64,000 nt of DNA, from the NCBI GenBank assembly GCA_040880465.1, contig JBBDIK010000012.1:2353-66352 (forward strand), written 5' to 3'. Shown here piece after piece: positions 14,080-32,121 of this stretch. The translations under genes and the position numbers were made by a program. The notes beneath the pieces are model-generated. The model saw nothing but the letters and a program-made list of their open reading frames with translations, was not told where the DNA came from and ran no database searches. Within the stretch, counting starts at the first letter, position 1; each line of letters opens with the position of its first letter. The DNA is from Actinomycetota bacterium. Lineage in GTDB: Bacteria > Actinomycetota > UBA4738 > JBBDHU01.

Positions 14080-14153
14080 GGGGCGGTAGCTCAGTTGGTC
14101 AGAGCGGGGGACTCATAATCCCTTGGTCGCAGGTTCGAGTCCTGCCCGCCCCA
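14080..14153 (+). tRNA. tRNA-Met (anticodon CAT), elongator-type (or Ile2 if lysidinylated)
   Basis: Full cloverleaf: acceptor GGGGCGG/CCGCCCC, D arm GCTC...GAGC, anticodon loop CTCATAA, T arm GCAGG/TTCGAGT/CCTGC. The G1-C72 pair argues against an initiator. Confidence 0.9.
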
Positions 14154-14206
14154 CCGAGCACGTTGGTGGTCAGATATCGAAGGTCCGCGCCGCCTAAGCT
14201 GGCGGG

Positions 14207-22395: not shown

Positions 22396-22507
22396 GGCCC
22401 CGCACCAGCTCCTTCACAGGTGGCCGTGAGGGAAGTATGCCCCATCCCGCACGCACACGCGAGGGGTGTCCCAGGCACCGCACCTCCGGGAGTCCTAGAG
22501 TCGCAGC

Positions 22508-22795
22508 GTGACTGCAGGCAGCGATGGACCGGAAGGGGGCCTCGCGGAAGGCGATGAGGTCGCTCCCGGGTGCCGGTACTGCGGGCGAGCAACGTTCGAT
22601 CCGGACAAGCGAGACCGGCCGTGGGTCCGCGGCGTGGCTGCTGGGCTTCAGGTCCTCGTTTGCCCGGCGTGCCAGGCGGATCGGGCAGGCTGGGCCGACG
22701 AGCTGGACCGATGCACGGCGTGCGATTCCCCCCGGCTCTCTGCCATGCTTGGAGAGATCGTGTGCCGCGCATGTGGGCATGCATCGGGCGCTTAG
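22508..22795 (+). CDS. small Cys-rich protein with four CxxC pairs (double zinc-ribbon-like)
   Basis: CRYC, CPAC, CTAC and CRAC motifs. The 3' end overlaps tRNA-Val by 10 nt. No family recognised. Confidence 0.4.
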   Translation: MTAGSDGPEGGLAEGDEVAPGCRYCGRATFDPDKRDRPWVRGVAAGLQVLVCPACQADRAGWADELDRCTACDSPRLSAMLGEIVCRACGHASGA

Positions 22796-22860
22796 CTCAG
22801 TGGGAGAGCACTTCCCTTACAAGGAAGGGGTCGGGGGTTCAAATCCCTCAGCGCCCACCA
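22786..22860 (+). tRNA. tRNA-Val (anticodon TAC), CCA encoded
   Basis: Acceptor GGGCGCT/AGCGCCC, D arm GCTC/GAGC, anticodon arm CTTCC-CTTACAA-GGAAG, T arm GGGGG-TTCAAAT-CCCTC, then ACCA. Confidence 0.92.
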
Positions 22861-23203
22861 AAGAAATGCCAGGTCAGCAGTGTTGTCGTTCGCATCGCAC
22901 GTCTCGGATCCGCTGGCCTCGCTCGCTACGGTCAAGCGAAAGTCAATCGCACTCCTCACCCCACAGTTGAGCACTTCCCTCGGGGGCGCAAAGCACTCAC
23001 GCACTTGACCCGATGGTGTCGGGCAAGCAAGCTTGCCCGATGAACGCTCCTCACCCCGATCGGTGCCGCGGCACGGCTAGTCTTCGCCGATGAGAGTCGC
23101 GGAATCCCGTTTCGAGCATCTCGGAAGTGCCCAGGGTGCAATGGGCTTTCGTCTCGGTGGGCCTCACACGAACCAACGGATGGTCACATGCGAGGGCGAA
23201 GAC

Positions 23204-23929
23204 ATGTACGACCTCAGTGTCCACTGCGAAACGTGCGCGTTCACGTTTGAACGGGTTGGTGTTCCGAATCCATCCGCGCTGCCTGTATCGGTTCTTCGCG
23301 GTCGGCTTCGGCGGGGGCTGGAATCGCTCGATCGGGAGGTGGTCGAGGCGTACGCCGAGATTTTGCCGGAGGGTGACTACGTCGTCTCGCTCAGCGATCT
23401 CCGCCCCAAGCTCGTGCACCCGCTCGATGAGGATGACTATTTCGCGAATGAAGGTCGTGCGCTGTTCGGAACCGAGGCCCCCTTCTACGATCTCCCAGCA
23501 ACTCCGAGGACTCCCTACTACCGGGCGGATGGGGAAAGGACGTTCAACCCCGTCGGGAAGATGTGGGGATACAACACGGACGAGCCGTGGCCGCAAAGGG
23601 CAGCAAGCTTTGTCTTCCTTGCCCCAATGAACTCGATTAGTAGCCTCGACCCGAACACCCTGGCTGAGTACCGATCCTCCGCCGGTCGGGGTACCGCAGT
23701 CGCATTGTCCGTGCTCGATGCGAAGGCTCCGGTCGTCGGCTTCGACGCTGATCCTGACTATGAGGTCGACGCTCACTGGTGCTGGACCCACTACCTCCTG
23801 GATGGTCATCACAAGACTCGGGCCACTTCTCTCGAAGGGGACTCGCTCTCCCTGCTGTCGTTCACCGCCCTTGAAGAGGGCGTTTCCACGCGAGCCGATG
23901 TTGAGCAGTTGATAGCCCTCCTTGGGTGA
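23204..23929 (+). CDS. hypothetical protein (cassette 1)
   Basis: Protein-like composition from the ATG at 23204 (MYDLSVHCETCAF...). The opposite-strand 342-aa ORF is Arg/Gly-rich and starts inside repeat R1. No family recognised. Confidence 0.55.
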   Translation: MYDLSVHCETCAFTFERVGVPNPSALPVSVLRGRLRRGLESLDREVVEAYAEILPEGDYVVSLSDLRPKLVHPLDEDDYFANEGRALFGTEAPFYDLPATPRTPYYRADGERTFNPVGKMWGYNTDEPWPQRAASFVFLAPMNSISSLDPNTLAEYRSSAGRGTAVALSVLDAKAPVVGFDADPDYEVDAHWCWTHYLLDGHHKTRATSLEGDSLSLLSFTALEEGVSTRADVEQLIALLG

Positions 23930-23995
23930 ACCCCCCTGCCGCGATCGGGTGGAGAGGTCTTCATGCGACCACGCACCCTTGGTGCCCTCGATTCC

Positions 23996-24167
23996 GGTCA
24001 AGAAATAGTCAAGGAGCCGACGGTACTTGCCGGTACTTGTGTGACTCATGTGACTGCGGAAAACGAACGACTCCCGCATACATGCTGGTCAGAGCGTCGC
24101 AGCGCCGAGATAGAGAGTCTCTCTTACAAGGAAGGGGTCGCAGGTTCAAATCCTGCAGCGCCCACCA
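23996..24167 (+). repeat. R1: 172-bp arm + tRNA-Val 3'-half repeat
   Basis: GGTCAAGAAATAGTCAAGGAGCCGACGGTACTTGCCGGTACTTGTGTGACTCATGTGACT...CTTACAAGGAAGGGGTCGCAGGTTCAAATCCTGCAGCGCCCACCA. Confidence 0.95.
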
Positions 24168-24198
24168 ACCACGGGGGTTTCACGCGAGTGCTTTTCGT

Positions 24199-24223
24199 CC
24201 GGTCAAGCAGAATCCTTGACCGG
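24199..24223 (-). terminator. 9-bp stem / 7-nt loop hairpin 20 nt downstream of the 24244..24924 stop
   Basis: CCGGTCAAG-cagaatc-CTTGACCGG. There is no U tract on either strand, so it may be a protein-binding inverted repeat (it contains the GGTCAAG motif) rather than a terminator. Confidence 0.3.
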
Positions 24224-24243
24224 CTGGCGCGCGCGCCTCTTGC

Positions 24244-24924
24244 TTAGTCGAGCTGGATTCCAAGCCGACGCGAGACCTCCCGAACGAACGGAAGGTGGCG
24301 ATCGTTCGCGGCGGCCGCGTGTGCCTGCATGAGAGATGTTGCAGTCGCGAGGTCGCCGGATGCGTGACGCATGACGGCAAGGTCGAAGAGAGGTCGGGGG
24401 TATCTGAACGGGTCGTCGCCAGCGTCCCACTTCGCATGGATGGCCTCTCGGTCTGGGAAGGAATCGAGATAGGGAATCCCATACTCGGAGATGAGTTCTG
24501 ACATGCGAAGCCCGATCTCGGGAGTAGGTGGGTCAAGGCTCCACCAGCCCTCATCCCCGCGCTCCATGATGTGCCCAAGCCGTTGCAGGATCTGACAGTC
24601 GTGTGCACCGATGAAAGTCGGAGTTGTGGAGAACTGCACGCGGTGTATCTCTGGGATGAAGACTCCAAGGTTCACAGTGAAGGAGCCGTACTTCGAGGGT
24701 CCGAGTACCCGGGCGCGGCTCTCCATGACTCGTCGCTGGTCCCCAGCGGATAGATTTGGCGGGATCGGTTCGAAACGAGCCATCTCGAAGCCCAAGACAT
24801 GGGTGAGGCCGTCAGCAGTCAAACGGTTGAAGTTGTTTGCGCGCTTCCGGAAGCCAGCGGCCTTCATGATCGGGGCGACGTAGGTTGCCACGTCCTTCAT
24901 GCGCACTGCGATCTCGGTCGGCAT
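24244..24924 (-). CDS. DUF4304-like protein (cassette 2)
   Basis: N-terminal AAGFRKRANNFNR...HVLGFE pattern resembles DUF4304. This is the only cassette gene on the minus strand. Confidence 0.6.
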   Translation of the reverse strand: MPTEIAVRMKDVATYVAPIMKAAGFRKRANNFNRLTADGLTHVLGFEMARFEPIPPNLSAGDQRRVMESRARVLGPSKYGSFTVNLGVFIPEIHRVQFSTTPTFIGAHDCQILQRLGHIMERGDEGWWSLDPPTPEIGLRMSELISEYGIPYLDSFPDREAIHAKWDAGDDPFRYPRPLFDLAVMRHASGDLATATSLMQAHAAAANDRHLPFVREVSRRLGIQLD

Positions 24925-24964
24925 GAGGACGAGGATAGTCCCGACTCACGGGCGCAAGGTAGCC

Positions 24965-25135
24965 GGTCAAGAAATAGTCAAGGAGCCGACGGTACTTGAC
25001 GGTACTTGTGTGACTCATGTGACTACAGAAGGCGAACGCCTCCCGCATACATGCTGGTCACAGCGTTGTCGGGTGGGGTGGGCGTTCTCCCTTACAAGGA
25101 AGGGGTCGCAGGTTCAAATCCTGCAGCGTCCACCA
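24965..25135 (+). repeat. R2: 171-bp arm + tRNA-Val 3'-half repeat
   Basis: 7 mismatches to R1 over the first ~102 nt (hand alignment). The linker differs. The tRNA half is identical to R1 except AGCGTCC in place of AGCGCCC. Confidence 0.95.
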
Positions 25136-25281
25136 AGGCTTGTCGTGTTTCGGGTGATGCTTGACGGAAGCATGACGAACATGCTGTGGTGAACCTGGCT
25201 AGCGGCTGACCCCGAAGGTCAAAGCGGGGTTCAATGACTCCCACCCGAGGGGTCCTGAGCCTGGTGGACGAGGAGGCGGTT

Positions 25282-26622
25282 ATGCGGCGAAGGATCACTA
25301 CCGCCATCGGCGTGGCCGGCGTAGTCGTTGCCTTGCTCGCGCCGGCAGGCCCCGTTCAAGCCGAAGCCCAGATCCGCTGGAGCGCTGAACACTCGGTGAC
25401 TGACGGGCCGGATGCTGCCTTCGACATCGCGCTCAGTCCTGACGCGGGAAGCGTGTATGTGACCGGCACTGTCACGATCGCGTACGACTCGGCTACTGGC
25501 TCGGAGCTATGGGTCGCCCCACCGGGGGGTCGCGCGATAGCCGTCAGCGGCGATGGTTCGATGGTGTTCGTCTCACAGGTCGCTGGCGGCGCACCCGTTT
25601 GCGGCGGCGAGACTACCGCGCTGGATTCCGAGACCGGTCTGACGCTTTGGAGCGTCCCCTTCGGCGGGCTCCTCACCTCAGATCCGGTCGGGTCAGCCCT
25701 CTATGTTGGAAACAGCGCAACGTCGTCATTCTGGCCTGACTGCCAAGGGCGCCTGATCGCTCTCAACCCAGAGGACGGCGTCGTCCGATGGCAACGGAAC
25801 CTTGCGAACGACGTGAGCATCAGGGCCATCGAGGTCTCCCCGGACGGACGGCGTGTCTTCGCCGCAGGTTCACAACTGTGGTGGGACGACTACGCCTGCG
25901 AGGAAGAGGGGCTTCCCGGAGGGAACATGTGGATTGCGACATTCCGGGCGGTTGGTGGCTCCCGCGTCTGGGACCGGACGATAAGTGCGCCGGGCTCCTC
26001 GGTTGACGGCACATCGTCTCTTGCCTTGTCCCCCTCAGGGGACCGCGCGTATCTGTACGGGGATTGGCACCCGTACGGAAGTTCGTGTTGGGGAAGGTCC
26101 GCGCCACGCGCGGCGACGCTCACGCTTCGGGCAGCGACCGGCCAGGAACAAGAAGTGGCGGTGTTCAATCACCGCAATCCGCAGATCTTCGGATGCGAGG
26201 GAGGAAGCCCCGCGGCAGGCCTCCTCGCAATCGCTCCAAGTGGACGAGCTTTGGTACATGCGGGGATCCAGTCAGGTGATTGCAAGTCCACCAACATCGT
26301 GATCGTGGCTAGTGACACACGCGGCAACGTTGAGTGGTCGCGTGAGATTGACTTGGGATCCGATGACCGTCCGCTCAGTGTGCTGTATGGACCGCAGGGC
26401 GGACGCGTGTACGTCGGGGGCGTAAGTGGCGACAGCGTGTTCGTGACCTCGCTCTCCAAGAAGAATGGGAGTCGACAGTGGCTCCAGCAGATTCCAGGAG
26501 CAGACTTTGGAGCGATGGGTGTGGGCGGCCCCGATCCATCCGTTTTCATAGCCGGATCAACGGGTGGCCCGGATTCAGACATGCTTACGGCGTCGATTGG
26601 CCCAGCGCAGTCACCGCCGTGA
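25282..26622 (+). CDS. secreted PQQ-like/BamB-like beta-propeller repeat protein (cassette 3)
   Basis: GAGGAGG lies before the ATG at 25282. Signal peptide (AIGVAGVVVALLAPAGPVQA). Repeated G-x-x-x-W/LW blade-like motifs. Confidence 0.7.
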   Translation: MRRRITTAIGVAGVVVALLAPAGPVQAEAQIRWSAEHSVTDGPDAAFDIALSPDAGSVYVTGTVTIAYDSATGSELWVAPPGGRAIAVSGDGSMVFVSQVAGGAPVCGGETTALDSETGLTLWSVPFGGLLTSDPVGSALYVGNSATSSFWPDCQGRLIALNPEDGVVRWQRNLANDVSIRAIEVSPDGRRVFAAGSQLWWDDYACEEEGLPGGNMWIATFRAVGGSRVWDRTISAPGSSVDGTSSLALSPSGDRAYLYGDWHPYGSSCWGRSAPRAATLTLRAATGQEQEVAVFNHRNPQIFGCEGGSPAAGLLAIAPSGRALVHAGIQSGDCKSTNIVIVASDTRGNVEWSREIDLGSDDRPLSVLYGPQGGRVYVGGVSGDSVFVTSLSKKNGSRQWLQQIPGADFGAMGVGGPDPSVFIAGSTGGPDSDMLTASIGPAQSPP

Positions 26623-26699
26623 GCGGACCGCTCGCCCCTTCCCTGAGCACCGGCATGACACATGCGAGGCGACCAAGAGCGTCTCGGTAGACGCTGAGC

Positions 26700-26833
26700 A
26701 GTCAAGAAATAGTCAAGGAGCCGACGGTACTTGCCGGTACTTGTGTGACTCATGTGACTGCGGAAAACGAACGCTCCCCGCATCCATGCTGGTCAGAGCG
26801 TCGTTGCGCGAGATGGAGAGTCTCTCTTACAAG
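26700..26833 (+). repeat. R3: arm copy truncated in the anticodon loop (ends ...CTCTTACAAG)
   Basis: The arm matches R1 closely, including the linker GAGATGGAGAGTCT. Similarity stops at 26833 and 15 nt later tRNA-Val #2 begins. Confidence 0.9.
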
Positions 26834-26848
26834 CACGAGTTCATATCG

Positions 26849-26921
26849 GGGCGCTTAGCTCAGTTGGGAGAGCGCCTGCTTTACACGCAGGAGGCCGGGG
26901 GTTCGAGTCCCTCAGCGCCCA
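26849..26921 (+). tRNA. tRNA-Val (anticodon TAC), second copy
   Basis: Acceptor GGGCGCT/AGCGCCC, D arm GCTC/GAGC, anticodon arm CCTGC-TTTACAC-GCAGG, T arm GGGGG-TTCGAGT-CCCTC, discriminator A then CC. Confidence 0.88.
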
Positions 26922-26938
26922 CCGACTAAAGTGATGCG

Positions 26939-27982
26939 ATGCCGAAGACGGAAGGGGCACGGGCGCCGATGAAGATTCTTGCCGTGTGCGCGCTCCTCGT
27001 TGTCGCCTGCGTAGCCTGCTCAAACGACCCGTCCTCGGACGGATCAGCAGCGTCGCCCTCATCCAACGCGGAAACGCCGCCGAGTGATCAGAAGACGTTC
27101 ACGCACGAGGGGATCGAACTTCAGTATCCGGCTGATTGGTCGCTTGCCGTTGCTCTCGAAGGCGCAGGCGTGTCGAACGGTTGCTCCGAGGGATTCTGGG
27201 CTGCGAGGACAGAGATCCCCGGCGGTGGGATTGCAGGCGTAGGACGCTGTCCGTCGTCCTTTGATTGGCCGCCTGAAGGCGAGACGATTCCAGAAGCGCT
27301 CCGACGAGAGCTTGCGATGAAGTCACCGGAGGATGTTGTCTCTATCCGCGCTCTAGATGCGAGCGAGATGCAAGGGGCCGAGGGAATCTGGATTGCGACA
27401 TCTTTGGATGCCGCAGCAGCGAAGAACTTCGGCATCTCGGGGCCATCCGACGGTGTGATTATTCGCGCCGCGGTTCCTTCTGAGGACCCAATGCGGCCCG
27501 ACATCTATGAAGTCTTCTGCCAAGTGCCAGCGGCTGATGCAAACATCGGCTTGAACGGATGCGAACTGATGGCGGAAACATTCCAGTTGACGCCGAGTTT
27601 GAGTTCTCCTATCAAGGCCGCCAGCGTCGATTGCAACCCGTCGGAGGTGCAACTGGGCGAGATTCTCGTCGAGAATGGCAACGCGATTGTGGCCCTTGCT
27701 GAAAACCAGACCCCCGGTGGCTACAAGCACTATGTCCAAGAGGCGGGAGTCTTCCTGGACGACGCGCGTGCTGCAGCGGAGAGCGCGCCTCCAGAGTTGG
27801 CTCCGTCGTGGGAGACGGCCATCGACGGGCTGGAACACATCCGAAGTGGCTACGCAGACTCGATCACGGCCTCGACAAGCCGAGAGCAAGATGCGGCGTA
27901 CCAGGAAGTCCTGCGCGGTCAGCAACTCCAAGCGACGGTCTTCAACGATCTAGATCAACAGGGATGCATCACTGGTGTCTAG
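26939..27982 (+). CDS. lipoprotein, function unknown (cassette 4)
   Basis: Signal peptide with a lipobox (MKILAVCALLVVACVAC-S). An alternative ATG lies at 26969. Confidence 0.7.
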   Translation: MPKTEGARAPMKILAVCALLVVACVACSNDPSSDGSAASPSSNAETPPSDQKTFTHEGIELQYPADWSLAVALEGAGVSNGCSEGFWAARTEIPGGGIAGVGRCPSSFDWPPEGETIPEALRRELAMKSPEDVVSIRALDASEMQGAEGIWIATSLDAAAAKNFGISGPSDGVIIRAAVPSEDPMRPDIYEVFCQVPAADANIGLNGCELMAETFQLTPSLSSPIKAASVDCNPSEVQLGEILVENGNAIVALAENQTPGGYKHYVQEAGVFLDDARAAAESAPPELAPSWETAIDGLEHIRSGYADSITASTSREQDAAYQEVLRGQQLQATVFNDLDQQGCITGV

Positions 27983-28016
27983 CCACGGTGCCTCCGGCAC
28001 CACTCGGATTGCGCGA

Positions 28017-28469
28017 ATGGTTGCTCATCGGTGCCTCGCAGTATTCATGCTGCTGGTGCTGTCGGGATGTTCGGGCAGCACGCCGCCCGTTGAGCCAGAT
28101 GCGCCGCCTGAAGAGTCGAGTCCAGGCCACTCCATCCACTACGAGGTGCGGCTTCGGGACGGCGGATCGGCCCCCTTCACTGCGACATTCACCTCCCCGA
28201 CAGGCACGGTGAGCACGTTTGAGGGAAGCACTCCTTGGGCCAGCGAGACGGAGGACTTTCAGGACGGTTCGATGCTGTCATTGCAGGCCGAGATATCCCA
28301 TGAGCAGAAGAGCCCGCTGCTGTGCAATCTGGTCGATGATGGCGGCGGAGGCTCCTGGACGATGGGACAGATGGGTGATCCGATTGATGCGTGCGCAGTG
28401 ACGTACACGCTCGGCCTGTGGCCGCCCGACGACAACGACCTTTCGAGCCCCCTGATCCGCGACGGTTGA
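28017..28469 (+). CDS. small lipoprotein, MmpS-like pattern (cassette 4)
   Basis: MVAHRCLAVFMLLVLSGC lipobox. The HYEV...PW...C...DG...C pattern is reminiscent of MmpS (tentative). An alternative GTG at 27975 overlaps the upstream stop. Confidence 0.6.
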   Translation: MVAHRCLAVFMLLVLSGCSGSTPPVEPDAPPEESSPGHSIHYEVRLRDGGSAPFTATFTSPTGTVSTFEGSTPWASETEDFQDGSMLSLQAEISHEQKSPLLCNLVDDGGGGSWTMGQMGDPIDACAVTYTLGLWPPDDNDLSSPLIRDG

Positions 28470-28527
28470 AGCCGCTCAATCCAATCAACCGGCTGTGCTG
28501 GCTAGACACTCTGCCAACCCCGGCCCC

Positions 28528-28697
28528 GGTCAAGAAAGAGTCAAGGAGCCGACGGTACTTGACGGTACTTGTGTGACTCATGTGACTACGGAAAACGAAC
28601 GCTCCCCGCATACATGCTGGTCAGAGCGTTGCGCAGCGCGGAGGACTATCTCCCTTACAAGGAAGGGGTCGCAGGTTCAAATCCTGCAGCGCCCACC
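28528..28697 (+). repeat. R4: 170-bp arm + tRNA-Val 3'-half repeat
   Basis: Full-length copy. The tRNA half is identical to R1 through GCGCCCACC. Confidence 0.95.
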
Positions 28698-28816
28698 GAT
28701 TGTTCTCGGAGGTCAAGCACGCTGTCCGGTCATTCATGACCATTCGGTAATCGGCATGTGCTCTTCGTCTTGCGACGACAAGGAGATTGCCCAGTGGCCG
28801 GGCGCACCCGGGCGGC

Positions 28817-29194
28817 ATGGGTCATGATCGCCCCGTGAAGGCCATTGGGTTGCTTGCGTTCATGCTTGCCCTTCTAACCGCGTGCGCGGCATCGGTGCCC
28901 TCCGCTGTCAACGGGTCACCGCATGAAGACGCGGAGCAGTATTGCCTGTTCGACTCTGGCTTGGAGACGGTCTGGCAGGGGACTCCGGAGACCATGGATC
29001 GTCCATGGAATGAGCTCTGTGTCATGCGCGGAATGGTCCCCCGGCTTGCACGACGTTGCACCGACGCTGACAAGCTCGAGCGATGGGTTCGCAGTCTCGA
29101 CCCAGCTGGTCGAAGGGAAACGCGAGAGGACTGTCGGAAGGAAGTGTCTGATCGCCCTCAGCCGGTTCCCGCTCCACCGGGGTGGCAGGGCTAG
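28817..29194 (+). CDS. small lipoprotein, function unknown (cassette 5)
   Basis: KAIGLLAFMLALLTAC lipobox. Start ambiguous: ATG 28817 or GTG 28835. Confidence 0.55.
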   Translation: MGHDRPVKAIGLLAFMLALLTACAASVPSAVNGSPHEDAEQYCLFDSGLETVWQGTPETMDRPWNELCVMRGMVPRLARRCTDADKLERWVRSLDPAGRRETREDCRKEVSDRPQPVPAPPGWQG

Positions 29195-29370
29195 GCCGGT
29201 TGCCAGCGCGCTATTCTTCGCCGATGACCCGCGTGATGGAGTCCCGATTCGAGCCTTGTTGGCGATGCCAAGGGCGAGTCGTTGCCCGAGCAGTTGAGGC
29301 TGAGGGCCCAGCGGATGGACACGGTCTTTCGGTCGCTGCGCGAGGGTCTTCAGAGCGGTAAGGTGGGCAG

Positions 29371-29598
29371 ATGAAGTACTTCCTGATCCGATACGAGAGG
29401 CACACCGGCCTGCTGAAAGGGCTCGACGAGTTCGGGTCGGCGCGGCGCGACGAGGCGCTTCAGGCTCGCTTCCAGTTGGAGCGTGCATCGGACGGGAGCG
29501 ATGACATCGAGATCGCATTGCTCGGCGCCGAGACGTTAGATGATCTGAGGGCAACGCACTCGCGTTACTTCCAACGCGAAGCGCCCATCGCAGTCTGA
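29371..29598 (+). CDS. small hypothetical protein, 75 aa (cassette 5)
   Basis: ATG preceded by GGTAAGGTGGG. Balanced, charged composition (MKYFLIRYERHTGLL...). Confidence 0.45.
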   Translation: MKYFLIRYERHTGLLKGLDEFGSARRDEALQARFQLERASDGSDDIEIALLGAETLDDLRATHSRYFQREAPIAV

Positions 29599-29620
29599 AC
29601 GCCCTACTCGAAGGGCGGCC

Positions 29621-29803
29621 ATGTTCGGGAAGAAGCGCGGCGGCGCACCGGGCGTTGCGGAGGTCGATACCTTCTGGGGATTCGTGATCGCGCTGATGGC
29701 GACAGCAGCCGACTATGGCGTGCGTCTGGCAAGTGAGTTCGCGAGGGAACGCCCACCTCCGATGATCCTTGCGGAGATGCGGGGGGAGGGGGCAGATGAC
29801 TGA
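29621..29803 (+). CDS. small hypothetical protein, 60 aa (cassette 5)
   Basis: ORF only, with one hydrophobic segment (FWGFVIALMATAA). Weak support. Confidence 0.25.
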   Translation: MFGKKRGGAPGVAEVDTFWGFVIALMATAADYGVRLASEFARERPPPMILAEMRGEGADD

Positions 29804-29841
29804 GGAAGGCATTAGGGGATCAGGGGAAAGGGCGTGAGCGG

Positions 29842-30318
29842 ATGAAGCGAAGCCGGATCTTGGTCGCCGCCACGCTTGGGCTCGCGGTGGTCTTCATCGC
29901 AGTGCTGGCGATGGCCCTGGTTCGGGCTGGCCACAATGGTCCCGCGGGAGAGGGCTGGGAAAACGCCGGATCACTGGAGGAACTCGACGCAACCAGGGTG
30001 GTCAAGGTCCCTGATCAGACCGTGTATCTGGTTGCCAGCGACCTCACACCCCTGGCGCTTTCGGCGGTTGATCCGCACTTGGGTGAGATCATCGCGTACT
30101 GCGAAAGCAGCGGCTGGTTCGAGGATCCTGATCACGGCTCGAAGTACGACGGGCAGGGGTACTACGCGATGGGTCCCTCACCTCGCGGAATGGATCGAGT
30201 AGCCGTGACGGTGTTCCAGGGCGATGTGTGGATCCAGCCTGCGAACGATACGGAGGGTCCTCCGCGCGGGGCCGACAACCCTGCGCACGAGGATCCGCGA
30301 GGTCCCTTCTGTTCGTGA
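29842..30318 (+). CDS. membrane-anchored Rieske-fold-like protein lacking the cluster-binding Cys residues (cassette 5)
   Basis: Signal anchor. DPHLGE...DPDHGSKYD aligns with the Rieske boxes CPHLGC...CPCHGSxF, with Asp/Glu where the Cys residues should be. Confidence 0.6.
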   Translation: MKRSRILVAATLGLAVVFIAVLAMALVRAGHNGPAGEGWENAGSLEELDATRVVKVPDQTVYLVASDLTPLALSAVDPHLGEIIAYCESSGWFEDPDHGSKYDGQGYYAMGPSPRGMDRVAVTVFQGDVWIQPANDTEGPPRGADNPAHEDPRGPFCS

Positions 30319-30356
30319 GCGAACGCCCTCACCGATGTGAATCAGCGCGAGGTCTC

Positions 30357-30422
30357 GGTCAAGGAATAGTCGAGGAGCCGACGGTACTTGTCGGTACTTG
30401 TGTGACTCATGTAACTACGGAT
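30357..30422 (+). repeat. R5: truncated arm copy (first ~65 nt only, no tRNA half)
   Basis: GGTCAAGGAATAGTCGAGGAGCCGACGGTACTTGTCGGTACTTGTGTGACTCATGTAACTACGGA, after which similarity is lost. Confidence 0.9.
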
Positions 30423-30489
30423 AGTGTTTCGGATCGCCTCTTTCCCCGGTTCTGGGACCGCTTCGGTCACGTTGAGGAGGGCACACGTC

Positions 30490-30780
30490 ATGGGAAAGTT
30501 CTTGATCGAGATCCCTCATGCGGAGGACGCCGCGGAGTGCACCGGGATCGTCAAGGTGTTTCTGTCGTCCGGCTCCCACCTGCTAACCAACGCGGAATGG
30601 GGATGCATGGACGGCGTGCACAACGCATGGATCATCGTGGAGGTGGACACGAAGGACGAGGCTCTCGCCATCGTCCCCCCAGCACTTCGCTCCGTCGCCA
30701 CAGTGACTGCGCTCAACTCCTTCACCTTGGACTACATCAACGCGGAGATCGAGCGCCTTGCGGGCGACGGCGTGGGGTAG
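30490..30780 (+). CDS. small hypothetical protein, 96 aa
   Basis: GAGGAGG lies 10 nt before the ATG at 30490. Its stop is 9 nt before the arr start. Confidence 0.55.
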   Translation: MGKFLIEIPHAEDAAECTGIVKVFLSSGSHLLTNAEWGCMDGVHNAWIIVEVDTKDEALAIVPPALRSVATVTALNSFTLDYINAEIERLAGDGVG

Positions 30781-30789
30781 CGAGACGGT

Positions 30790-31206
30790 ATGGGGAGCAA
30801 GCCGGTGGCAGCCACCGACGGCCTGAGTTCGCAGCACTTCTACCACGGTACGCGGGCTGATCTGAAACTCGGAGACCTCGTCGAGCCCGGCCAAACCTCT
30901 AACTACGGCAAGAGGAACAAGACGGTCTACGTCTATCTGACCGGCACCCTGGATGCGGCCATCTGGGGGGCGGAGCTAGCCCTCGGCGAAGGACCCGGCA
31001 GGATCTACGTGGTGGAACCGACCGGCCCGATCATGGACGACCCCAATCTGACAAACACGAGATACCCGGGGAATCCGACGAAGTCATACCGCTCCCGGGA
31101 GCCGCTGCGGGTCACGGGCGAAGTCGCAGAGTGGCAAGGGCACTCCCCCGAGACGATCCAGGCCATGAGGGACAGGATCAAGGGTCTTGAGCCGATCGAC
31201 GACTAG
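30790..31206 (+). CDS. arr: NAD+--rifampin ADP-ribosyltransferase
   Basis: Arr-family signature blocks FYHGT(R/K)A, WGAELA, GRIYVVEPTGP..DDPNLT and PGNPTKSYRS.EPLRV.GEV..W.GH. Confidence 0.9.
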   Translation: MGSKPVAATDGLSSQHFYHGTRADLKLGDLVEPGQTSNYGKRNKTVYVYLTGTLDAAIWGAELALGEGPGRIYVVEPTGPIMDDPNLTNTRYPGNPTKSYRSREPLRVTGEVAEWQGHSPETIQAMRDRIKGLEPIDD

Positions 31207-31230
31207 TGTTCCCTCGTAGGAAGGAGTGGG

Positions 31231-32121
31231 ATGGACTCGCGACCGATGACCGAGGACGACATCTCGTCCTGTGTCGACATCTTCTACACCTCGTTCAATG
31301 CCCTTCATCGCCAGCACGGTTTGGCGGAAGAGGACGCCGCAGACTCCGGATGGCTGGCGGGTGCACTTCGACACTTCCTCGAGACGGACCCGCACGGCGG
31401 CCGGATCGCGATGCAGGATGGCAACCCGGTCGCGTTCGCGTCGGCGTTCCGACGGCACCGTTACTGGTTCCTCTCGTTCTTGTTCGTCCTCCCTGATGCG
31501 CAGGGATACGGGATCGGACGGTCACTCCTCGACGAGCTGGTGCCACAGGAGGATCCGGCCGATGTCGTCCGGGCCACGGTCGTGGAGTCGTTCCAGCCGG
31601 TCTCGACGGGGTTGTACGCGAGCTACGGCATGACGCCCCGGTCGATCCGATACGGGCTCAGCAGGGTCGGCCGGCCGGACGCACTCCCTGAACTTCCCGC
31701 CGACCTCGGGAAGGAGGAGTTGGCTCCGGCCGATCTCGAGGACATGGCGAAGCTCGATGGGCGGATCCTGGGCTTCGAGCGGTCGGCCGACCACGGGTGG
31801 TGGGATGCCTCCGGCATGAAGGGGTACGTCTATCGGCACGGCGACGAACCGGTGGGATACGCGTACGTGGACGACGGTTTCGTCGGGCCGGCTCTTGCGA
31901 TCGATGAGCAAACCTTGTGTTCGATGGTCGCCGATATCGTGCGCGATGCAGATGATCCCGCGGCCGTGACGGTGAATACCTATGGTGATGCCGCTGCGGT
32001 GTTCCAGATGCTCCTTCGTGCAGGCGCTCGGATCGATGATGACAAGCACCGATTCGTCTACGGCTCCAGTTCCGGACCATTGCCTCCCAGCTACATCAAT
32101 TTCTCCGGCTTCCTGCCGTAG
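31231..32121 (+). CDS. GNAT family N-acetyltransferase
   Basis: Acetyl-CoA motif A (LFVLPDAQGYGIGRSLL). The substrate is unknown. Confidence 0.75.
   Translation: MDSRPMTEDDISSCVDIFYTSFNALHRQHGLAEEDAADSGWLAGALRHFLETDPHGGRIAMQDGNPVAFASAFRRHRYWFLSFLFVLPDAQGYGIGRSLLDELVPQEDPADVVRATVVESFQPVSTGLYASYGMTPRSIRYGLSRVGRPDALPELPADLGKEELAPADLEDMAKLDGRILGFERSADHGWWDASGMKGYVYRHGDEPVGYAYVDDGFVGPALAIDEQTLCSMVADIVRDADDPAAVTVNTYGDAAAVFQMLLRAGARIDDDKHRFVYGSSSGPLPPSYINFSGFLP

Follow-up and report, generated by a model that had tools for sequence, protein, structure and literature searches.

Phased direct repeats between cassettes at tRNA-Val genes of an Actinomycetota bacterium as candidate arm-type sites of a lambda-type integrase family

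We analysed a stretch of 64,000 nucleotides from an Actinomycetota bacterium (GenBank assembly GCA_040880465.1, contig JBBDIK010000012.1, positions 2,353 to 66,352 of the forward strand), referred to here as the window. It contains an array of small gene cassettes with two tRNA-Val genes and five related repeats, R1 to R5. A full R copy consists of a 125-nt arm and, joined to it, a tRNA-Val 3′ half that begins at the anticodon loop and ends with CCA; R1–R5 are the sole copies across the 1.74-Mb, 86.5%-complete assembly. The array runs in the order tRNA-Val #1, cassette, R1, cassette, R2, cassette, R3, tRNA-Val #2, cassette, R4, cassette, R5, with cassettes of 0.8–1.8 kb. From comparison with relatives, we consider it probable that R1–R5 represent the P arm and core of a lambda-type tyrosine-integrase attachment site at tRNA-Val, and that the array formed by accretion of decayed cassettes. 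The features are listed below, where +n counts nucleotides past the end of a tRNA or tRNA half, and P and P′ are the assignments argued for in the text.

22786–22860, forward strand: tRNA-Val(UAC) #1, intact (ARAGORN and Rfam), attL core of the array.
22869–22877, forward strand: CCAGGTCAG, core-proximal P′ motif at +9 after tRNA-Val #1, common to the whole integrase family.
22930–22947, forward strand: GGTCAAGcgaaAGTCAAT, P′ arm-type pair of 11-bp phase at +70 after tRNA-Val #1, with position and phase as in integrase-bearing elements.
23996–24167, forward strand: R1 (P arm and core).
23996–24013, forward strand: arm-type pair of the R1 P arm, GGTCAAG aaat AGTCAAG, at the outer border of the repeat; spacing of 11 bp in 52 of 54 homologues.
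24014–24021, forward strand: GAGCCGAC block right after the second heptamer of R1, present in 54 of 54 copies (the scan pattern demanded GAGCCGAC in the 51 from relatives).
24021–24039, forward strand: two CGGTACTTG units of R1 at 10-bp phase (24021–24029 and 24031–24039).
24040–24055, forward strand: two TGTGACT units of R1 at 9-bp phase (24040–24046 and 24049–24055), a pair found in R1–R5.
24084–24096, forward strand: GCTGGTCAGAGCG, core-proximal P motif of R1, strongly conserved among homologues and related to the P′ CAGGTCAG motif.
24123–24167, forward strand: R1 core, tRNA-Val(UAC) 3′ half that spans anticodon loop to CCA and is native in type for the genus (alignment; T stem identical to that of the G001 tRNA-Val).
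24199–24223, no strand: inverted repeat CCGGTCAAG-N7-CTTGACCGG after R1, a fold with a 9-bp stem.
24965–25135, forward strand: R2, full copy (P arm and core).
25217–25234, forward strand: GGTCAAAgcggGGTTCAAT at +82 after R2, overlapping the start of the next gene.
26700–26833, forward strand: R3, truncated, with its last matching base (26833) just past the anticodon loop.
26849–26923: tRNA-Val(UAC) #2, beginning 15 nt after R3.
28528–28697, forward strand: R4, full copy, its 3′ part called as a tRNA by ARAGORN and not by Rfam.
28711–28717, forward strand: GGTCAAG at +14 after R4, where the core-proximal CAGGTCA motif of the whole family lies.
30357–30422, forward strand: R5, of which only the first 66 nt of the arm are kept, all three sub-repeat pairs included.

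A sequence-only reading of R1 had described three pairs of sub-repeats at 11-, 10- and 9-bp phase, and all three lie exactly where it placed them. It had also called the pairs conserved in R1–R5. The six units do keep their register in each of the five copies, and only three bases deviate: R3 has AGTCAAG as its first heptamer, and R5 has AGTCGAG as its second heptamer and TGTAACT as its second 9-bp-phase unit. The motifs that it reported downstream of the junctions are likewise present, namely GGTCAAGcgaaAGTCAAT at 22930–22947, GGTCAAG at 24201 with CTTGACC at 24215, GGTCAAA at 25217 and GGTCAAG at 28711, while no GGTCAAG-type motif follows tRNA-Val #2. These hits do not occupy equivalent positions, as had been proposed, since they lie at +70, +34 and +14 and differ in kind.

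Whether such recurrence could arise by chance depends on which motif is counted. The genome contains 416 copies of GGTCAAG on both strands of 1.74 Mb, which equals the Markov expectation and falls at the 87th percentile of 7-mers with four G/C. The bare 7-mer is weak evidence because it is this common, and the concern that it is over-represented genome-wide is borne out in part. CGGTACTTG and TGTGACT are rare outside the repeats. The former has 22 copies genome-wide, 10 of them in repeats; the latter has 35 on both strands, and all 10 in the window are units of R copies. The phased pair is also rare. GTCAA-type pairs at 10–11 bp spacing occur eight times in the genome, five of these being R copies and one the pair at +70 after tRNA-Val #1. 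At the genome-wide rate of GGTCAAG, a forward copy would come to lie within 100 nt of three out of five junctions with P ~2e-5.

A BLAST search of relatives first yielded diverged copies fused to tRNA-Val(GAC) halves, and a pattern scan with one genome per species then gave 51 copies of the arm in 32 uncultured Actinomycetota genomes. The heptamers are spaced by 11 bp in 52 of 54 copies, 10 bp is the best period of the following 30 nt in 53 of 54, and conservation sets in abruptly at the first heptamer of the homologue alignment. GGTCAAGGAGCCGAC is found in every copy, most of it being required by the scan pattern itself. The 10-bp units number three in relatives, of the type C(C/G)G(A/T)AC(T/C), and two in this genome. 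Relatives mostly carry a single CTGTGACA, which makes the 9-bp TGTGACT duplication specific to the lineage of this genome; in one relative, GTGTGGCTC units are repeated in tandem. Homologues therefore keep the sub-repeats and spacing of the first two pairs and have in part lost the third. We also considered concerted evolution of the 10-bp units and rejected it, the effect being weak (similarity 0.689 within elements versus 0.667 between elements).

These data bear on the idea that the sub-repeats are products of slippage or duplication, or the N-terminus of a minus-strand open reading frame (ORF; MSHTSTGKYRRLLDYFLT...), without any binding role, and that the downstream GGTCAAG copies are chance. 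The abundance of GGTCAAG, the lineage-specific 9-bp pair and a minus-strand ORF starting inside R1–R4 would all suit it. However, phase and unit number are kept across the 32 genomes despite unrelated flanks, the variable base falls in the spacer between units, the downstream 7-mers cluster beyond the genome-wide rate and six of the eight phased GTCAA pairs lie in the array. The minus-strand ORF was rejected as a candidate, since relatives have no ATG there and the conservation has no 3-nt periodicity. The conservation data largely refute this explanation, and we give it almost no weight.

The arm is found at no fewer than three tRNA targets, Val-GAC, Val-UAC and Ile-GAU. Arrays of R copies lie behind a tRNA-Gly/Cys/Val(GAC) cluster in G059, G024, G056 and G032, with cassettes of 1.6–11 kb. 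As expected of an attP or attR core, R1, R2 and R4 carry the tRNA from the anticodon loop to CCA. Both anticodon-stem strands, CTTCC and GGAAG, are kept in relatives, and the 5′ strand is partly degenerate in the copies of the window. In the 150 nt after R copies we counted 12 forward (G/A)GTCAA(C/G) motifs versus none in each of two control regions of equal size, which points to a P′ remnant in a minority of R copies. In one relative (L016 1690–2000, G021:C1) an ORF that by eye resembles the C-terminus of an IS110-family transposase ends ~25 nt past the tRNA-like end of an R copy.

The tRNA half raised the alternative that the repeat is a structured small RNA gene with a tRNA-like 3′ end, its sub-repeats being RNA motifs. 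ARAGORN calls a tRNA-Val in R4 (28624–28697) and likewise in R copies of G056 and G032, and many relatives share an imperfect inverted repeat, CTGA(G/C)CTGC...GC(T/A)GGTCAG. Yet the Rfam tRNA model stays below threshold on every R copy, the acceptor-stem 5′ strand is absent, and truncated R3 and R5 retain the sub-repeat block. RNAalifold on 54 copies found no supported helix in the arm, so a conserved RNA structure there was rejected; the pairs that it reports are the inherited T arm, part of the anticodon stem, a 3-bp acceptor-proximal stem and a 3-bp stem inside GGTCAAGGAGCCGAC, which is invariant and hence unable to show covariation. We regard a small RNA gene as extremely improbable. The calls in R4, G056 and G032 are displaced tRNA fragments, given the subthreshold Rfam score and the lack of an acceptor 5′ strand, and are open to mis-annotation as genes.

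Comparison with integrases of the order places the heptamer pair in a wider layout. In contig C2 of this genome a tRNA-Val(GAC) is followed by a tyrosine integrase, homologues of which are found beside many tRNAs in 40 of 201 genomes of the order. At ~10 attL junctions of this family, CAGGTCAG lies at +10 to +14 and a direct-repeat pair of 11-bp phase at +55 to +85; the sequence of this pair varies from element to element. CAGGTCAG(A/G)GG occurs 10–14 nt after the tRNA end at ~10 of the 16 integrase-adjacent tRNAs listed (Ala, Met, Val and Gly; relatives), and a motif like it also follows 14 of 51 R copies of relatives. In this genome GGTCA lies at +10 to +13 after 5 of 38 tRNA calls, the R4 pseudo-tRNA call among them. 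One tRNA of the window, tRNA-Met(CAU) at 14080–14170, has GGTGGTCAGAT at +12, the same core-proximal signature as integrase-linked tRNAs, and may be another old attachment junction.

Two complete elements, G181 (5.1 kb, tRNA-Gly) and G111 (32 kb, tRNA-Lys), carry the same repeat in both arms. In the P arm, an element-specific pair of 11-bp phase lies ~125–137 nt upstream of the displaced tRNA half, and the P′ arm has the same motif 55–85 nt past the tRNA end. The units are CTGGGGGCAGA ATGGGGGCAGA (P) and GGTGGGGGCAC GGTGGGGGCAG (P′) in G181, and CCGTCCCGTCT CCGTCCCGTCA (P) and three CGTCCCGTC units (P′) in G111. Both elements have CAGGT(C/A) motifs beside the core, and the position of R1 GCTGGTCAGAGCG is taken by CAGGTCAGAGG in the P arm of G181 and by CGCAGGTCG in that of G111. 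R1 shares this layout, with the heptamer pair at −127 and GCTGGTCAGAGCG at −39, followed by the core. On this basis the R repeats would be P arms with the heptamer pair in the arm-type position. In the integrases, ~60–80 residues precede the SAM-like core-binding domain, enough space for an arm-binding domain. The sequence-only reading had likened the sub-repeats to arm-type recombinase or accessory-protein sites of an attP arm, and for the heptamer pair the comparison with relatives supports this.

The integrase of contig C2 itself was rejected as the cognate enzyme, since its P′ arm has GAGGACCT repeats instead of GGTCAA and it is 27% identical to the integrase described below from G021. At this locus (G000:C2:52296-53625, L014), tRNA-Gly, tRNA-Cys and tRNA-Val(GAC) precede a convergent 412-aa tyrosine integrase at the contig end. 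GAGGACCT occurs twice in the P′ region, 21 nt apart, and the other end of the element is unassembled. In G002:C4 (L191 2300–2476), from a genome of the same family as this one, one 2.3-kb integrase-less cassette at tRNA-Val(UAC) holds two secreted beta-propeller genes. The P arm that closes this cassette is diverged and has a different 11-bp-phased pair, GCATAACACCT GCGTAACAACT, together with GGAACTC/GGACTCCTGAG units that resemble those of the R family.

The GGTCAA motif itself tracks one integrase clade. When the order was scanned for tRNA T-loops with a GGTCAA pair behind them, only the window and G272 came up, and G272 gave an integrase remnant: tRNA-Val(GAC) is followed by CCAGGTCAG, then GGTCAACgggtGGTCAAC and then a truncated integrase N-terminus. 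The start of G021:C1 has CTGGTCACAGG and GGTCAACgccaGGTCAAC, then an intact 378-aa integrase, and an R-type arm at 34.8 kb closes the element. In G099 a tRNA-Ile(GAU) is followed by GGTCAACataGGTCAAC and an integrase 56% identical to that of G021, and then by four R-type arms carrying tRNA-Ile halves, at 12, 17, 35 and 39 kb. Elements of this clade thus have R-type arms (GGTCAAC-N4-GGTCAAGGAGCCGAC...; GGTCAAC-N4-GGTCAAG) at their far ends and a GGTCAAC pair in the P′ arm. Integrases of other clades have repeats of their own at these positions, so that GGTCAA(C/G) is linked to the one clade. In G272, G274 and L078 a decayed integrase copy comes after the same P′ pair, with the order R, P′ and a 70-aa stub in L078; G048 keeps an integrase fragment and has lost the P′ pair.

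Members of this clade are rare. Homologues of the G021 integrase above 45% identity occur in 4 of 294 genomes of the order, two of them intact (G021 and G099), and none was found in the assembly of this genome at its 86.5% completeness. The window has no PF00589 match. Searches of 50 loci with R copies gave no integrase with the contig-C2 integrase as query, and one truncated stub (L078) with the G021 integrase; the intact cognate integrase of G021 lies at the other end of its element, beyond the 50 searched loci. A scan of viral contigs with R, P′ and arm-start patterns gave no matches, and a metagenome scan with the P′ pattern gave 55 hits, mostly chance; in four of them the motif comes after a tRNA-like 3′ end, and none had an integrase within reach. 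Three of the metagenome loci (L152, L158 and L169) have a tRNA 3′ end, ~12 nt, CAGGTCAGAGG, ~55 nt and then GGTCAACaaat(G/A)GTCAA, and another (L136) has the same stretch from CAGGTCAG to the pair with no tRNA-like end upstream. These loci have a lower G+C content (48–65%), and the P′ layout may thus reach beyond this actinobacterial order.

One motif on both arms, as the sequence-only reading expected, is seen at a single junction of the window, the arm-type pair being found at 23996–24013 (P) and 22930–22947 (P′), as it is on both arms in G021 and G099. We read the tRNA-Val #1 junction, with CCAGGTCAG at +9 and GGTCAAGcgaaAGTCAAT at +70, as a P′ arm whose integrase gene was lost. The same does not hold for each of the other downstream hits. 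GGTCAAG at +14 after R4 would correspond to the core-proximal motif, given its position, and not to the arm-type pair. The inverted GGTCAAG/CTTGACC pair after R1 is probably not an arm site but a hairpin, with a 9-bp stem, no U tract and an overall z-score of −1.35, located ~20 nt past the stop of a minus-strand DUF4304 gene. GGTCAAAgcggGGTTCAAT after R2 (GGTCAAA, with CTTGAC) may be at best a degenerate P′ pair, read from its sequence and without statistical support. Comparative sequence data thus support the sequence-only reading at the tRNA-Val #1 junction and for the heptamers; for the 10-bp and 9-bp units it is plausible.

Directly after the P′ pair, window 22964–22980 is a fragment of the tRNA-Val #1 5′ half (GAGCACTTCCCT) which ends at the start of the anticodon loop. 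This fragment stands at the position expected for int and looks like an aberrant recombination product that removed the gene.

OmpR/PhoB and SARP-type factors bind direct repeats of 11-bp phase, and the heptamer pairs might instead be operators of this kind, the arm then serving the cassette genes as promoter or regulatory module. The phase is typical of such factors, GGTCAAG-N4-GGTCAAG pairs are present elsewhere in the genome (C10:19959 and C11:188050), and STAND proteins with BTAD and Trans_reg_C domains are recurrent cargo near the R copies of relatives. Against this, the arm is invariably joined to a tRNA half, cargo genes are found on both strands, other integrases of this family have repeats at equal distances that are quite unlike these, and in four genomes the GGTCAAC pair stands directly before the gene for a cognate integrase. 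A SARP or OmpR site would have its heptamer repeats just upstream of a −10 element; the repeats do have the required phase, but 22500–31300 contains no promoter-like hexamer pair. Host regulation by the arm is, we judge, very unlikely, and attachment-site arms remain our preferred reading. The C10:19959 and C11:188050 pairs lie between coding regions as judged by eye, without an ORF call, and one of them is a perfect tandem of GGTCAAGGCGG (×2); they could be sites of a host regulator or old arm remnants. A 48-locus SARP/BTAD-like cargo family from our first ORF clustering was discarded, since it arose mostly as an artefact of translating ORFs across the repeat itself.

The array is an insertion. 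In G001, of the same genus, the orthologous flanks are 1.4 kb apart versus 9.3 kb in the window. The T stem of the orthologous G001 tRNA-Val, GCAGG/CCTGC, is that of R1, R2 and R4, whereas tRNA-Val #1 has GGGGG/CCCTC, which is foreign to the genus. The repeat halves are thus native, while tRNA-Val #1 has an imported 3′ half, as would be expected if integration took place at the anticodon loop. Of the 44 R copies whose flanks were usable, seven pairs share upstream cargo, five share the downstream flank and none shares both, which identifies R as a recombination breakpoint. Such independent assortment of flanks lends indirect support to excision or transfer by an integrase acting in cis or trans. 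At the end of R3 (...CTTACAAG) the repeat is joined to 15 unrelated nt and then to the complete tRNA-Val #2, which has a different anticodon stem (26826–26923); the position of this breakpoint fits strand exchange in the anticodon loop.

The contents of the cassettes agree in having no recombinase. A Pfam scan of the ten cassette ORFs gave DUF4304, PQQ_2, Arr-ms and GNAT, a weak PsbP_2 below the cut-off, five ORFs without a match and no recombinase. Cargo near R copies in relatives, clustered after repeat masking, is diverse and also contains none. The units are bounded by att sites and have no integrase or transfer genes, and in relatives a truncated int stands behind P′ arms, as is characteristic of cis-mobilizable elements (CIMEs). 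The P′ arm without int behind tRNA-Val #1 fits decay from integrase-bearing elements. Decay to CIMEs followed by accretion is a published model (PMC5704250), and the array matches it.

Taken together, the best reading of the phased repeats is that they are candidate integrase docking sites which border integrase-less cassettes, a known kind of scar from a family that has not been described before. The heptamer pair, ~127 nt from the anticodon loop, would provide arm-type sites for the N-terminal domain of the integrase, and the matching P′ pair would survive only behind tRNA-Val #1 (22930–22947). A second motif, C(A/T)GGTCAG, beside the core on both sides (24084–24096 in R1 and 22869–22877) is common to the wider integrase family. 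Lambda and L5 have their sites for excisionase or bending proteins in the interval from the arm-type sites to the core. The same interval contains the CGGTACTTG and TGTGACT units, and from this position we infer that they are most likely sites for an accessory protein (excisionase) or further integrase sites. The array would have grown by successive site-specific insertions at tRNA-Val, after which the integrase end of each element (P′ arm and int) was presumably lost. What is left would be integrase-less cassettes, each closed by a P arm and tRNA half, that is, CIMEs.

Several observations weigh against this proposal. The GGTCAAG 7-mer is frequent throughout the genome, which also has two intergenic GGTCAAG-N4-GGTCAAG pairs away from the array, at C10:19959 and C11:188050. 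Beyond this genome the 9-bp units are not kept as a pair, and the similarity values of the 10-bp units argue only weakly for co-evolution with a protein. A cognate integrase stands beside its site in relatives only, and in neither the window nor the assembly; the best match to the G021 integrase here is the 27%-identical enzyme on contig C2, with other P′ repeats. Finally, four of the five junctions in the window have no convincing P′ arm. What we observe directly is the architecture of the repeats, their conservation, the association with a single integrase clade of relatives and the status of the array as an insertion. Protein binding by the arms is inferred from these observations, as would be any continued use of the sites in this genome.

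Sets of arm-type sites are known from lambda (P1, P2 and P′1–3), mycobacteriophage L5 (P1–P7) and the attP of pSAM2. The R family resembles these lambda-type systems in having short direct repeats ~100–130 bp either side of the core, common to the P and P′ arms and distinct from the core sequence, an extra N-terminal domain in the integrase, and putative accessory sites between arm sites and core. In contrast to lambda, L5 and pSAM2, the motif is GGTCAA(C/G), the pairs are strictly of 10–11 bp phase and CAGGTCAG flanks the core on both sides; this genome also has no integrase and a single P′ arm left, and the family is known from sequence alone. For the layout of attP in general we follow Fogg et al. 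2014 (PMC4111918).

As in CIMEs and tandem accretions of the ICESt1/ICESt3 type of Streptococcus thermophilus (review, PMC5704250), integrase and transfer genes are lost, att sites are kept, and units accumulate at a single tRNA gene through repeated site-specific insertion. One end of such an accretion may hold an integrase-bearing element, as in G099. Unlike CIMEs, the cassettes are very small in the window (0.8–1.8 kb) with up to five stacked, the units keep only a P arm and core with no full attL/attR pair of their own, and one arm family extends over the 32 genomes and at least three tRNA targets. A regenerated target with displaced 3′ fragments marks the ends of tRNA and tmRNA islands as well, and tandem islands occur at one target (Islander, PMC4383910; Dehalococcoides ssrA, PMC3146451). 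Those islands are defined by their integrase, whereas most units here have no integrase gene.

The array also resembles an integron in its small, unrelated, mostly single-gene cassettes with a recurring recombination site between them, and in arr in the last cassette. It differs in having no intI/attI/Pc platform, in cassette genes on either strand, and in a site made of a 125-nt direct-repeat arm and a tRNA half instead of a folded attC hairpin. No integrase stands at the anchor, the upstream gene encodes a conserved CxxC mini-protein, and the arm has no conserved pairing.

That upstream gene is a 95-aa CxxC ORF (22508–22795; zinc-ribbon, weakly Trm112p-like) which runs into tRNA-Val #1. Its 3′ end and the junction with tRNA-Val(UAC) are conserved in G001, which has no array, and in G002, so that we take it as a resident gene outside the mobile system. 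At the other end, the last cassette, after truncated R5, encodes a rifampin ADP-ribosyltransferase (Arr-ms, 158.8 bits) and a GNAT acetyltransferase (30790–32121). Comparison with G001 places the end of the island at ~32140, where no terminal att site is left.

Comparison of the R family with its relatives gives a sequence-level grammar of attachment sites for an undescribed integrase clade of uncultured soil Actinomycetota: a GGTCAA(C/G) pair at 10–11 bp phase, a core-proximal CAGGTCAG, and a core formed by the tRNA 3′ half from the anticodon loop. It also provides a rule for finding arm sites, in which the same 11-bp-phased pair lies ~125 nt upstream of a displaced tRNA half and 55–85 nt past an intact tRNA. 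The grammar explains the recurrence of tRNA fragments together with small accessory cassettes (secreted beta-propellers, STAND NTPases, ECF sigma pairs and arr), and it names the integrases of G021 and G099 and their DNA sites as experimental targets. It is possible, though on balance doubtful, that the R arms are live, with a rare integrase of the G021/G099 clade, carried by few genomes of the community, acting in trans or in cis on the integrase-less cassettes. If so, tRNA-Val and tRNA-Ile loci would be an integron-like platform of cassette exchange that uses a lambda-type att site in place of attC hairpins, and sites active in trans might offer an integration tool for high-G+C bacteria.

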